Shown: positions 3,068 through 6,010 of the stretch, piece by piece
Numbering within the stretch: the stretch's first letter is position 1
Layout: each line of letters starts with the position of its first letter
Source: Candidatus Hermodarchaeota archaeon
GTDB lineage: Archaea > Asgardarchaeota > Hermodarchaeia > Hermodarchaeales > Hermodarchaeaceae
Direction: 5' to 3'
Length of the DNA: 13,967 nucleotides
Assembly (NCBI GenBank): GCA_016839365.1
Contig: JAEOUH010000021.1
Span: 1 to 13,967 of the forward strand
The notes under the pieces: generated by a model
Database searches by the model: none
What the model saw: only the letters and a program-made list of their open reading frames with translations
What the model was told of the DNA's origin: nothing
Translations under genes and position numbers: made by a program

Positions 3068-3990
3068 CGTGCAATTGCCTCCAAAAAACCATCCACATCT
3101 ATAGTCGGTTTCTGTGCTGGGGGTGCTTGTTGTAGCACCAATTCAATCTCAGCTATGAAATTTGGAATAATCAATCTCAGCAGACCAAGACGGGTCGAAT
3201 CCTTCTGAATTAAGGTACTAAAAAGGCCTCCCGCTAGCCGGTAGATGAAGTGTTGCCTCGAACCACAATCGCATAGAACCTGAAGAATCTTTGTTCGTTT
3301 GATTAATTGGGCGACTTTTCGAGACGTATCAAATAGAGTATAGGTTAGCGTGGAATCACGAATACGCTTTCCCTCGTTGAATCGCTGTGTCGGAATTAAA
3401 TAGCCTCCTTCAAGACAAACTTCACCTGTTTGAGCAGAAGGCAATGCCTGAAGAAAATCAGTGACAATCGCCGTTATTTGTTGAGCGGCGTTTTCGGTAA
3501 TTGTCATATTCAAAGTACCTGTTGACCAATTCTGCTGTGGTCCATCTCGAACACTAAACGCATTACAGATTTGAGTACGTTCTGCTTTCTCAAAGGATCG
3601 CAATGGCGGAATAAACTGCTCATTCCATAGAACCTCGTCTAAATGAGAAATAACCCGCTCTAATTGCAAAAATAGGGCTCCTAAATTACTTTGGCTTTGG
3701 GTCGTTACTGTAACGAAATAGTTGGCAGCTCGAGGAAGCGTGGCTAATAAGAATTTACTGCGTTCTCCTTCAATAAGCACATATGATAAATCGTCATGGA
3801 GCCTTTGTGCCACCGATAAGATTGCAGCAGCTGAAGATGATAAACCAAAAATCTCATTCTCTGATAACCAAACCCCACTACTAGAAATGGGGTAGCCATC
3901 TCTTTGAACTAATACCGAGTTCTCTACACCAGGAACCGATTTGATATTCTGTAAATGCACATTGAACTGGTCTAACATCCTATAGGACAT
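3064..3990 (-). CDS. Tandem Roadblock/LAMTOR2 (MglB-like) domain protein
   Basis: Domain 1: LQNIKSVPGVENSVLVQRDGYPISS...SSAAAILSVAQRL...VLIEGE...NLGALFLQLERVISHL, a classic roadblock. Domain 2 (about aa 165-285): CLEGGYLI...LFDTSRKVAQ...QVLCDCG...RLGLLRLII, the same layout but diverged. Confidence 0.85.
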   Translation of the reverse strand: MSYRMLDQFNVHLQNIKSVPGVENSVLVQRDGYPISSSGVWLSENEIFGLSSSAAAILSVAQRLHDDLSYVLIEGERSKFLLATLPRAANYFVTVTTQSQSNLGALFLQLERVISHLDEVLWNEQFIPPLRSFEKAERTQICNAFSVRDGPQQNWSTGTLNMTITENAAQQITAIVTDFLQALPSAQTGEVCLEGGYLIPTQRFNEGKRIRDSTLTYTLFDTSRKVAQLIKRTKILQVLCDCGSRQHFIYRLAGGLFSTLIQKDSTRLGLLRLIIPNFIAEIELVLQQAPPAQKPTIDVDGFLEAIAR

Positions 3991-4058: not shown

Positions 4059-4174
4059 TGGTGCGGGGGGTGGGATTCGAACCCACGAAGGTCTACACCA
4101 CAGGAGCCTCAGTCCTGCCCCTATAATCAAAACAGGTTAATCCTGTTTTTTAGACCATGCTCGGGTACCCCCGC
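4059..4174 (-). tRNA. tRNA-Leu(GAG) with 28-nt intron (4150-4123) at position 21/22; CCA encoded
   Basis: Minus strand: acceptor GCGGGGG/CCCCCGC + ACCA; anticodon arm CAGGA-CTGAGGC-TCCTG (GAG at 4110-4108); long variable arm GGT-GTAG-ACC; T arm GTGGG-TTCGAAT-CCCAC. Removing 4150-4123 gives an 88-nt tRNA with a normal D arm, CCCGAGCATGGTCTAAGGG. Confidence 0.96.
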
Positions 4175-4205: not shown

Positions 4206-4220
4206 TTTTAAAATTTTTCT
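4206..4220 (-). promoter_or_regulatory. BRE-TATA promoter of tRNA-Leu
   Basis: Minus strand reads AGAAAAA-TTTTAAAA: a purine-rich BRE directly followed by a TATA box about 32 nt upstream of the mature tRNA 5' end. Confidence 0.7.
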
Positions 4221-4345
4221 TGATAAAGGGCTGACCCATTTGGCGCCAATCACTCAAACAAACATTATACTCAAGTGAAGCACATTATTCCTCTCTTCTT
4301 ACGATTGGAAAATCTAAATTCTCCGATTTTTAGGCTCGCATGAGA

Positions 4346-4485
4346 GGTAATACTACACTTTTTCAGCCTGTTTAACAAATAGAACCAAGAGCGCCCGAAG
4401 TTTCACGCGTTTTAGCCTCTCCCGTCTTATCTTTTTAGGGCTAGGTAATACCCTGATAATACTAGAACCTTTTCAGGATAATATC
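4346..4485 (+). promoter_or_regulatory. Direct repeats G(G/A)TAATA(C/T) upstream of cdrS-ftsZ: candidate RHH operator
   Basis: TAATACT 4348-4354, TAATACC 4446-4452, TAATACT 4457-4463, TAATATC 4479-4485. The last three are spaced 11 and 22 bp apart. Confidence 0.6.
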
Positions 4486-4505
4486 TAGGAGTGACCCTGA
4501 TTGCA

Positions 4506-4673
4506 ATGAAACTAATCACTGTTAATCTACCAGAAGCTTATGTCAATGGGATTGAACGGCTGATTCTCGAAAAACTGTATCCCAATCGAAGTGAAGCTAT
4601 TCGAATAGCCGTAAGGGACTTGTTGAAAAAAGAACTATGGGAGCCGAACATTCCACAACCGAAAGCCAGGTGA
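4506..4673 (+). CDS. cdrS: Ribbon-helix-helix (CopG/Arc/MetJ) regulator, CdrS-like cell division regulator
   Basis: MKLITVNLPE...IERLI...YPNRSEAIRIAVRDLL is the RHH signature. It lies directly upstream of ftsZ, as in the conserved archaeal cdrS-ftsZ2 operon. GGAGTGA SD at 4488-4494 favours ATG 4506. Confidence 0.88.
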   Translation: MKLITVNLPEAYVNGIERLILEKLYPNRSEAIRIAVRDLLKKELWEPNIPQPKAR

Positions 4674-4681
4674 ATGAAAAA

Positions 4682-6010
4682 ATGGAAAGCGGAATATCGA
4701 AGCTAGTTCGTGATGCAACTCAACGCCCAACTAAGACGGTTGCCCGGTATTCACAACCAGGGGCAAGAATTATGGTTGCTGGCATTGGTGGAGGAGGAAA
4801 TAATACGATTAACAGGTTAGTACAAATCGGTATTCAAGGTGCAGAATGTATCGCAGTTAATACCGATCAACAACATCTCGATCATGTACAAGCCCATAAA
4901 AAAATACTCATTGGAAAAACAATCACGAGGGGGCTTGGTACAGGGGGATTTCCCGAATTAGGAGCGGCCGCTGCAGAAGAATCACGTCAAGATCTAACGA
5001 ATCTTTTACGAGGAGTTGATTTGCTATTTATTGCTGCAGGGCTAGGAGGGGGCACCGGAACAGGTGCAGCTCCTGTTATCGCTGAAATTGCGAAGCAGAA
5101 TGGGGCAATTGTAGTGTGTACTGTGACTACACCATTCACCATTGAAGGCGCGAGAATTGACAAGGCTCATCGGGGTCTCCAACGTTTACGGAGATACGCA
5201 GACACAGTTATCGTTATTGATAATAATAAACTACTTGAAATTGCACGAGATTTACCAATAGATGAGGCTTTTAGTGTTGCCGATGAAATTCTTGCAAGTA
5301 TGGTGAAAGGAGTTACCGAAACCATTAGCTTACCTAGCTTGATTAACCTAGACTTTGCAGACGTTCGAAGTGTATTAGCTGGAGGCGGGGTTGCATTAGT
5401 TGGGTTAGGAGAAGCCACGCAATCTGATACTAAGGACTCCGATCGTATTTCAGAGGCTGTGAAGAATTCTCTCCACTCTCCATTACTTGGTGATTTAAGC
5501 GTAAAAGGTGCTACTGGAGCGCTGATTCATGTTATCGGTGGTCCCGATCTCAGCCTTGAAGAAGCGACTCGTGTTGCCGATGTGGTCACTCGCCAAATGA
5601 GACACGACGCAAGGATTATTTGGGGTGCACGAATCATACCAGATTTCGCTGGTTATGTCCGTGTTCTTCTTATTGTTACCGGGTTAGAGGGAAATTCGGC
5701 AGTCTTACCAGGGTTCCGAGGAAACATCGAGATTTTTGAGGATGTTGATTGGAACTCTCTTCAACTTTATCGCTTAGATTCAGCGGTAAGTGATGCTACA
5801 CAGGAAGAAGAGGAACTCATAGGTGCTACGCCTGTATTTCGTTCCTTTGATTCAGTCAAAGCCACCCAAACTCAAGCAGACGCTTCAATCACTCACACCG
5901 ATAACGGAAACATTGACGAGGAACCTTCAATCTCCCTCATTAGTACAAGTGTTTCAGGAACTCAGCCTTTACAGGGGCTTGGACTGAAAAAGATCGAATC
6001 GACTTCCTAA
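4682..6010 (+). CDS. ftsZ: Cell division GTPase FtsZ (FtsZ2-like)
   Basis: GIGGGGNN, NTD, GLGTGGFPELG, tubulin signature GGGTGTG, T7 loop LINLDFAD. The segment VKGVTETISLPSLINLD and the linkage to cdrS point to the FtsZ2 subfamily. AGGTGA SD at 4668-4673 favours ATG 4682 over 4637. Confidence 0.97.
   Translation: MESGISKLVRDATQRPTKTVARYSQPGARIMVAGIGGGGNNTINRLVQIGIQGAECIAVNTDQQHLDHVQAHKKILIGKTITRGLGTGGFPELGAAAAEESRQDLTNLLRGVDLLFIAAGLGGGTGTGAAPVIAEIAKQNGAIVVCTVTTPFTIEGARIDKAHRGLQRLRRYADTVIVIDNNKLLEIARDLPIDEAFSVADEILASMVKGVTETISLPSLINLDFADVRSVLAGGGVALVGLGEATQSDTKDSDRISEAVKNSLHSPLLGDLSVKGATGALIHVIGGPDLSLEEATRVADVVTRQMRHDARIIWGARIIPDFAGYVRVLLIVTGLEGNSAVLPGFRGNIEIFEDVDWNSLQLYRLDSAVSDATQEEEELIGATPVFRSFDSVKATQTQADASITHTDNGNIDEEPSISLISTSVSGTQPLQGLGLKKIESTS

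Follow-up and report, generated by a model that had tools for sequence, protein, structure and literature searches.

Upstream of the cdrS-ftsZ gene pair of a Candidatus Hermodarchaeum (Asgard archaea) genome lie several TAATACT-like words, and we were interested in whether these are genuine operators, which protein reads them, and whether they share an origin with the site of aCcr1, the cell-cycle regulator of Sulfolobales, as had been suggested by an initial annotation of the sequence. The whole stretch of DNA analysed (the window; 13,967 nucleotides) is contig C74 of a 2.2-Mb genome that is 84% complete. The genes around the words are as follows:

4059-4174, minus strand: tRNA-Leu(GAG) gene, in the same intergenic region, outside the cdrS module
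4506-4673, plus strand: cdrS, 55-aa ribbon-helix-helix (RHH) protein (Pfam RHH_1, E 8.2e-6)
4682-6010, plus strand: ftsZ (Pfam Tubulin and FtsZ_C)

The cdrS-ftsZ arrangement has been described in Halobacteria and noted across archaea (PMC7439475). CdrS orthologues of 85-98% identity were found in 12 other Ca. Hermodarchaeum genomes, always with ftsZ as the next gene, and besides these 13 genus genomes the pair also occurs in several other Asgard families. A tblastn search of the genome showed ftsZ to be single-copy in the assembly; two in-frame ATG codons come into question as its start, 4682 and the alternative 4637, which overlaps cdrS. An RNA-library contig covering the cdrS/ftsZ junction (4646-4800) is a weak indication, as the RNA data amount to two short metatranscriptome-library contigs that give no start site and may stem from DNA carry-over. 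Upstream of cdrS, a roadblock/DENN/MglA operon on the opposite strand ends at 3990, which leaves a spacer of 516 bp. Rfam and plain tRNA scans of the whole window gave no match. The tRNA-Leu(GAG) gene in the spacer, missed by the plain scan, was recognised through the alignment of the cdrS loci (conserved in at least 11 of 13, absent from one) and called by ARAGORN after in silico removal of 26-39 nt; it carries a non-canonical D-loop intron of ~28 nt at about 4123-4150, and its TATA box TTTTAAAA lies at about 4206-4218. The variable hairpin in this gene resembles a terminator but is the intron. In seven genus genomes orc1/cdc6 (origin) is located ~35 kb from cdrS-ftsZ on one contig, so that the division operon is origin-proximal.

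All four words of the initial annotation were found on the plus strand at the positions claimed, TAATACT at 4348-4354, TAATACC at 4446-4452, TAATACT at 4457-4463 and TAATATC at 4479-4485, and the 11- and 22-bp spacings proved exact. TAATAC occurs 12 times in the window compared with 5.45 +/- 2.33 expected, a number reached by one of 200 shuffles, and TAATAYY 19 times compared with 7.6 expected, reached by none of 200. While the octamer GGTAATAC is found 49 times on both strands of the whole 2.2-Mb genome, two copies of it and one GATAATAC fall within a stretch of 118 bp upstream of cdrS. Alignment of the cdrS upstream regions of this genome and 12 other species of the genus (n = 13) led to the following elements:

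4240-4249, no strand: invariant palindrome TTGGCGCCAA, an E2F-type TTTGGCGC site (13/13 genus genomes)
4346-4354, no strand: distal box GGTAATACT, core GTAATAC at 4347-4353; invariant in 13/13 with diverged flanks, fits the degenerate aCcr1-box consensus
4431-4439, plus strand: T-rich stretch CTTTTTAGG directly upstream of proximal box 1, possible weak TATA box
4444-4452, no strand: proximal box 1 GGTAATACC; GGTAATAC invariant in 13/13, ninth base C in 12/13
4455-4465, no strand: proximal box 2 GATAATACT followed by AG; GATAATAC and AG invariant in 13/13, ninth base T or C
4470-4474, plus strand: TTTTC, invariant five-column run located after box 2 and ahead of the start codon; putative promoter or leader element
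4477-4485, plus strand: fourth 'box' GATAATATC, an AT-rich stretch and a different kind of element
4497-4503, plus strand: CTGATTG, 3-9 nt before the ATG (GAT at 4499-4501 invariant, rest near-invariant), putative Shine-Dalgarno-like ribosome-binding site

In the 250 bp before cdrS, the sole invariant runs of at least eight columns among the 13 species were 4346-4354, 4444-4451 and 4455-4462, against background columns with 49% pairwise identity of which 9.5% are invariant; shuffling of the invariant columns gave P ~0.0004 for a run of at least eight. The proximal boxes start at -62 and -51 from the cdrS ATG in 13/13 species and the distal box at -159 in 11/13 (-160 and -161 in the other two), and the three boxes as well as the 11-bp distance between the proximal ones are kept in all 13 orthologous promoters. 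Strong purifying selection acts on the boxes and on their arrangement. Less became of the fourth word, which varies across the genus (GATAACATC, GAGCATTAC, GGAAACATG and GACAATATG were observed) and fails the aCcr1-box consensus at position 8, so that it does not count as a box. The longer near-duplicate proposed for 4348-4366 and 4457-4476 was reduced in the same way: the box plus AG is common to both copies, whereas the distal TTTTCAG is not retained in other species. Neither of these two features exceeds chance. Proximal box 1 (GGTAATACC) is a perfect 9-bp palindrome around a central A:T, and the TAC(C/T)AG tail of proximal box 2 matches the boxes at two further genes described below, xerA and an E2F-like gene.

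Three candidates for the TATA element before cdrS were considered, namely the T-rich stretch at 4431-4439, box 2 itself, or TTTTC. The first is T-rich in most of the 13 species, with exceptions such as CTTTCAATT, and is possibly a weak TATA box by analogy with homologous promoters, in which the TATA box directly precedes the box pair. As a separate observation, the spacers of the whole upstream module (4240-4465) are frozen at 106/107 bp and 97-99 bp despite 49% sequence identity, and neither an ORF nor an Rfam match was found between its elements; the frozen geometry may be due to looping, a positioned histone stack or another cause.

The box recurs elsewhere in the genome with the consensus (G)(G/A)TAWTAC(C/T)NG and the core palindrome GTAWTAC. 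The genome has 169 copies of this core; 24 are located outside ORFs of at least 100 aa, and the core shows no genome-wide enrichment there, behaving like control words; any regulon should therefore be small. Conservation checks of several non-ORF sites, those on contigs C5, C11, C45, C53, C71, C75, C90 and C93 not among them, led to three further promoter regions. One belongs to a paralogue of cdrS, cdrS2, whose product (59 aa, RHH_1) is 56% identical to CdrS; four boxes phased at 11-12 bp extend here from the TATA box to the TTG start, and GGGTAATACGC is invariant in 16/16 genomes of two genera. The spacer between a xerA-like gene (XerC/D-type recombinase) and a divergent 60-aa gene carries two GGTAWTACC boxes in 12/12 genomes, of which one adjoins the upstream edge of the xerA TATA box and the other follows closely on that of the 60-aa gene. 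Finally, GTAWTACCAG immediately precedes the TATA box of an E2F/DP-like winged-helix gene in 13/13 evaluable genus genomes and in 3/3 genomes of the sister genus. At these other promoters the central W flips between A and T from species to species while the arms stay fixed, as a protein site with two-fold symmetry predicts. The box, identical in 13 relatives at cdrS, recurs before four other conserved genes and is therefore a real regulator binding site, and it is predicted to mark a small conserved regulon consisting of cdrS-ftsZ, cdrS2, the xerA-like gene with the divergent 60-aa gene, and the E2F/DP-like gene. The 60-aa gene (contig C89:14488-14670, minus strand) is itself conserved and belongs to no Pfam family; 34 homologues were found, all unnamed or 'hypothetical' except for one odd JGI label, and those with an organism name come from Asgard MAGs labelled Promethearchaeota, Thor-, Odin- or Hodarchaeota.

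The same promoters bear on the idea that the boxes are core promoter elements (TATA/BRE) instead of regulator sites, for which their AT-richness, their location 45-60 bp before the start codon and the TATA-like appearance of GATAATAC could be taken. Recognisable TATA boxes of the genus are of the types TTTTAAAA (tRNA-Leu), TTAAAT (xerA) and TTTTTAAC (E2F-like gene), whereas the box is found in either orientation and upstream of, downstream of or overlapping them: at cdrS2 and the 60-aa gene it overlaps the TATA box or comes after it, at xerA and the E2F-like gene it comes first, and at cdrS the order hinges on which of the T-rich elements serves as TATA box. One copy moreover lies 160 bp upstream of cdrS, and the 9-bp invariance is far stricter than that of TATA boxes, so we consider this explanation extremely improbable.

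For the protein reading the boxes, the literature on Sulfolobales offers a close parallel. The motif of aCcr1 is AGTATTA (PMC9976892), as the initial annotation had stated correctly, and this is the same site as the aCcr1-box, a 9-bp palindrome given as A(T/G)G(A)TA(G)A(T/G)TACN (PMC9976878). The core GTAWTAC is common to both systems, and GGTAATACT, GGTAATACC and GATAATACT fit the aCcr1-box consensus exactly, in agreement with the designation as aCcr1-type boxes. Binding of the same core by aCcr1-3 of Sulfolobales and by gp21 of the virus SIRV2 is known from EMSA and ChIP (PMC9976878, PMC9976892, PMC13199686), the three Sulfolobales paralogues reading similar boxes (PMC13199686). The homology of CdrS to this family was confirmed by BLASTP against SIRV2 gp21 (= ORF59b, aCcr1 family; E 2e-7, 37% identity): both proteins share a near-identical beta-strand, K-(L/I)-I-T-x-(N/K)-(L/I)-P, and NRSE-IR-A at the start of helix 2. 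Of the aCcr1 residues required for binding, R2, K7 and R27 (PMC9976878), the CdrS counterparts are K2, N7 and R28. As in the aCcr1 system, small homologous RHH proteins with several paralogues are accompanied by similar 9-bp palindromic boxes with a GTAWTAC core, of which one or two per promoter are placed on or close to the core promoter of a division gene. The two systems differ in their targets, which here comprise ftsZ, a recombinase gene and an E2F-like gene and not cdvA/ESCRT, in the flanks (G...C here, A...T there), in the distal copy at a fixed distance of ~100 bp, and in the box being upstream of the TATA box at two targets here and not between TATA box and start codon.

It seems rather probable to us that the boxes are operators for a dimeric RHH regulator of the CdrS family, i.e. 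CdrS, CdrS2 or both. That they would serve a dimeric protein is suggested by their palindromic form, the flipping central W at other promoters and the tandem pair 11 bp apart. An RHH-family reader is indicated because RHH genes account for two of the five conserved target promoters and carry multi-copy phased arrays there, the usual layout of autoregulation, and because homologous Sulfolobales proteins have been shown by experiment to bind exactly this core. The 11-bp-spaced pairs of 7-mers in the promoters of cdrS homologues in Bathyarchaeia and Thermoprotei, described below, point the same way. The phased arrays and the identity of the core speak against an unrelated non-RHH factor, e.g. of the winged-helix type, whose agreement with the aCcr1-box would be a coincidence. 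Many dimeric factors could use a palindrome of 7 bp, and the core lacks genome-wide enrichment, which would be compatible with such a protein, but we regard it as improbable. The GTAWTAC core alone cannot name the reader, since other RHH proteins, such as a NikR-like protein in this genome, use similar cores.

Within the CdrS family the choice is less clear. Strict autoregulation of cdrS by CdrS, as proposed initially, appears possible at somewhat less than even confidence. At the positions that likely read the DNA, CdrS has K2/T5/N7 and CdrS2 has H2/S5/K7; the two proteins therefore need not share a site, and BLASTP of CdrS2 against gp21 gave no alignment, so that the detectable aCcr1-family similarity belongs to CdrS and weighs against CdrS2 as the only reader. 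If CdrS2 alone read the boxes, it would control cdrS-ftsZ from outside, and CdrS would not be autoregulating and might have other targets. This finds a parallel in Halobacterium, where CdrL, a second RHH protein, and not CdrS, has been shown to bind the cdrS-ftsZ2 promoter (PMC7439475), and it would agree with the cdrS2 promoter having the densest array, with four phased boxes in two genera. It would also agree with the sister genus, in which the box at the E2F-like gene persists and CdrS2 was found, whereas canonical ftsZ, ftsZ-linked cdrS and a xerA homologue were not found in four MAGs of ~80% completeness. A loss of cdrS-ftsZ there is unsafe, as SepF was detected in 4/4 of these MAGs and orc1/cdc6 in 1/4 (a divergent tubulin-family gene in 2/4); the absence of ftsZ, cdrS and xerA may reflect either real loss or an unassembled origin-proximal region, and for the same reason the sister genus cannot decide between CdrS and CdrS2. 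Taken together, we hold exclusive reading by CdrS2 to be unlikely, although it deserves more weight than any non-RHH factor.

In the mechanism proposed for a CdrS-family reader, it is inferred which protein binds, whether it activates or represses, and where transcription starts. A single RHH dimer would occupy each box, with the two-stranded beta-sheet reading the GTA/TAC half-sites. Owing to their distance of 11 bp, the proximal boxes lie on one face of the helix, and two dimers would bind this pair cooperatively, on or beside the cdrS-ftsZ core promoter, with the distal box 97-99 bp upstream adding a further dimer. Feedback is likely at cdrS and cdrS2, with repression expected where the boxes cover the region from TATA box to start; if the TATA box of cdrS were at 4431-4439 as in the homologous promoters, the pair would cover the transcription start and repression would be predicted. 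The box before xerA and the one before the E2F-like gene border BRE/TATA on the upstream side, which would be compatible with activation as well as with TFB exclusion.

Classical RHH operators (Arc, CopG, NikR) consist of adjacent sites for cooperating dimers and belong to bacterial repressors. The cdrS promoter resembles them in that its sub-sites are spaced by roughly a helical turn, face the same side of the DNA and overlap the regulator's own promoter, and differs in the small multi-gene regulon tied to cell-cycle genes and in the additional distal site. With CdrS/CdrL of Halobacteria it shares an RHH gene of 55-60 aa immediately before ftsZ, apparently in one transcription unit, a palindromic motif and a circuit that includes a second RHH protein; CdrL is said to be confined to Halobacteria, whereas the paralogue in Hermodarchaeum, with 59 aa, is CdrS-like and not a CdrL. 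For Haloferax CdrS, described as an activator, 18 ChIP sites are quoted, mostly 41-110 nt upstream of transcription starts, and its own promoter is absent from those quoted (PMC8406309). Its motif is said to resemble the aCcr1-box (PMC9976878).

The initial annotation had gone further and proposed one ancestral RHH/operator pair shared by FtsZ-based and ESCRT/Cdv-based division. The protein homology and the shared core stand, and GTAWTAC was also detected upstream of cdrS homologues in Atabeyarchaeia and in some Thermoprotei MAGs. A single ancestral operator is weakened, however, because the promoters of Bathyarchaeia homologues, which are 63-70% identical to CdrS, carry the different palindrome ATGTTAT-N4-ATAACAT, because the box is absent from several other Asgard cdrS-ftsZ loci and from the ESCRT genes, and because other RHH families use similar cores. 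In this genome no GTAWTAC was found upstream of the ESCRT-III operon (contig C7) or of sepF, both of which the initial annotation had suggested scanning, and the division gene with boxes is ftsZ. What the bathyarchaeal promoters and that of a Thermoprotei MAG homologue (AGTATTACT followed by GTAAATAC) have in common is a pair of 7-mers spaced by 11 bp directly after the TATA box. Judging from the bathyarchaeal palindrome, the operator itself is not ancestral to the whole CdrS family.

A common origin of CdrS and aCcr1 with similar motifs has already been proposed in the discussion of PMC9976878, for which the pairing in Hermodarchaeum is independent support, within the limits that the ESCRT genes here have no box and the bathyarchaeal homologues use another palindrome. 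Our literature search for a published cis-regulatory site or regulon of Asgard cell-cycle genes found none, and papers mentioning both 'CdrS' and 'Asgard' deal with gene synteny only. An RHH cell-cycle regulator with a GTAWTAC operator is a known type of system, here in a lineage where it was previously undescribed and with an unexpected regulon, by which the experimentally known RHH/GTAWTAC pairing of Sulfolobales is extended to an FtsZ-dependent lineage close to eukaryotes. With two candidate proteins (55-59 aa) and five promoters to consider, the boxes offer a concrete target for mutation that requires no culturing.

The palindrome TTGGCGCCAA at 4240-4249 adds a second type of site to the module. 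In 11 genomes it is separated from the distal box by 106 bp and in the other two by 107 bp; it is kept in the one genome without the neighbouring tRNA gene, and large insertions occur solely on the tRNA side, so that it belongs to the cdrS side. Four copies are present in the genome, one of them 145 bp before orc1/cdc6 inside the origin (contig C76), where the site has a genus-wide conserved core CGCGCCAAWTGTGAAC. The copy at C85:22151 was put down to chance, since it falls in the CDS of a small ribosomal protein gene and its variation follows the third codon positions, and the remaining copy is inside an ORF. TTTSGCGC-type sites are hence conserved before cdrS-ftsZ (13/13) and, as CGCGCCAAW, before orc1/cdc6, and both are candidate E2F sites; for comparison, the E2F1 promoter sites are TTTGGCGCGTAAA and TTTCGCGGCAAAA (PMC3875678). 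The E2F-like protein (161 aa; contig C37:31142-31627) scored 34.4 bits with E2F_TDP compared with a Pfam cut-off of 25.7 and contains RRLYD, in line with the RRXYD recognition motif (PMC8564135); among PDB sequences it matched only E2F4 and E2F8, both weakly. Asgard E2F homologues have been reported earlier (PMC7617429), and the subfamily was found in 24 of the 201 Asgard genomes sampled; no GTAWTAC was detected upstream of its relatives in two other Asgard families.

Because the E2F-like gene is itself a conserved GTAWTAC target, a reciprocal cell-cycle circuit is conceivable in which the E2F-like protein would read TTGGCGCCAA and the cdc6-oriC site, while a CdrS-family RHH protein would read the boxes at the E2F-like gene, ftsZ and xerA. 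With two E2F-type sites as its basis such a circuit is possible, and we put it forward as a speculative proposal that is more likely wrong. If it were true, E2F-type transcription of replication and division genes would predate eukaryotes and would have been wired to archaeal RHH cell-cycle regulators; the E2F-like gene together with the E2F-type site makes it testable whether Asgard E2F homologues act on cell-cycle genes.

Two other occurrences of box-like sequences were set aside. On contig C50, a NikR-like gene (RHH plus nickel-binding NikR_C domain; C50:1953-3796) is divergent from a radical-SAM gene, and between the two sits GTATTA-N16-TATTAC, an arrangement with the geometry of the E. 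coli NikR operator. By this N16 geometry the AGTATTAC pair on C50 was assigned to the adjacent NikR-like gene and not to CdrS. At C85:24249 a copy of GGTAATAC with TTTGGCGCG 110 bp upstream reproduces the layout at cdrS and lies next to an AT-rich promoter; as it is not conserved in the genus, it was regarded as a chance occurrence and serves as a negative control. Close to it, at C85:24290-24385, we observed a highly conserved and apparently self-complementary leader before a 131-aa gene, which may be a structured RNA.
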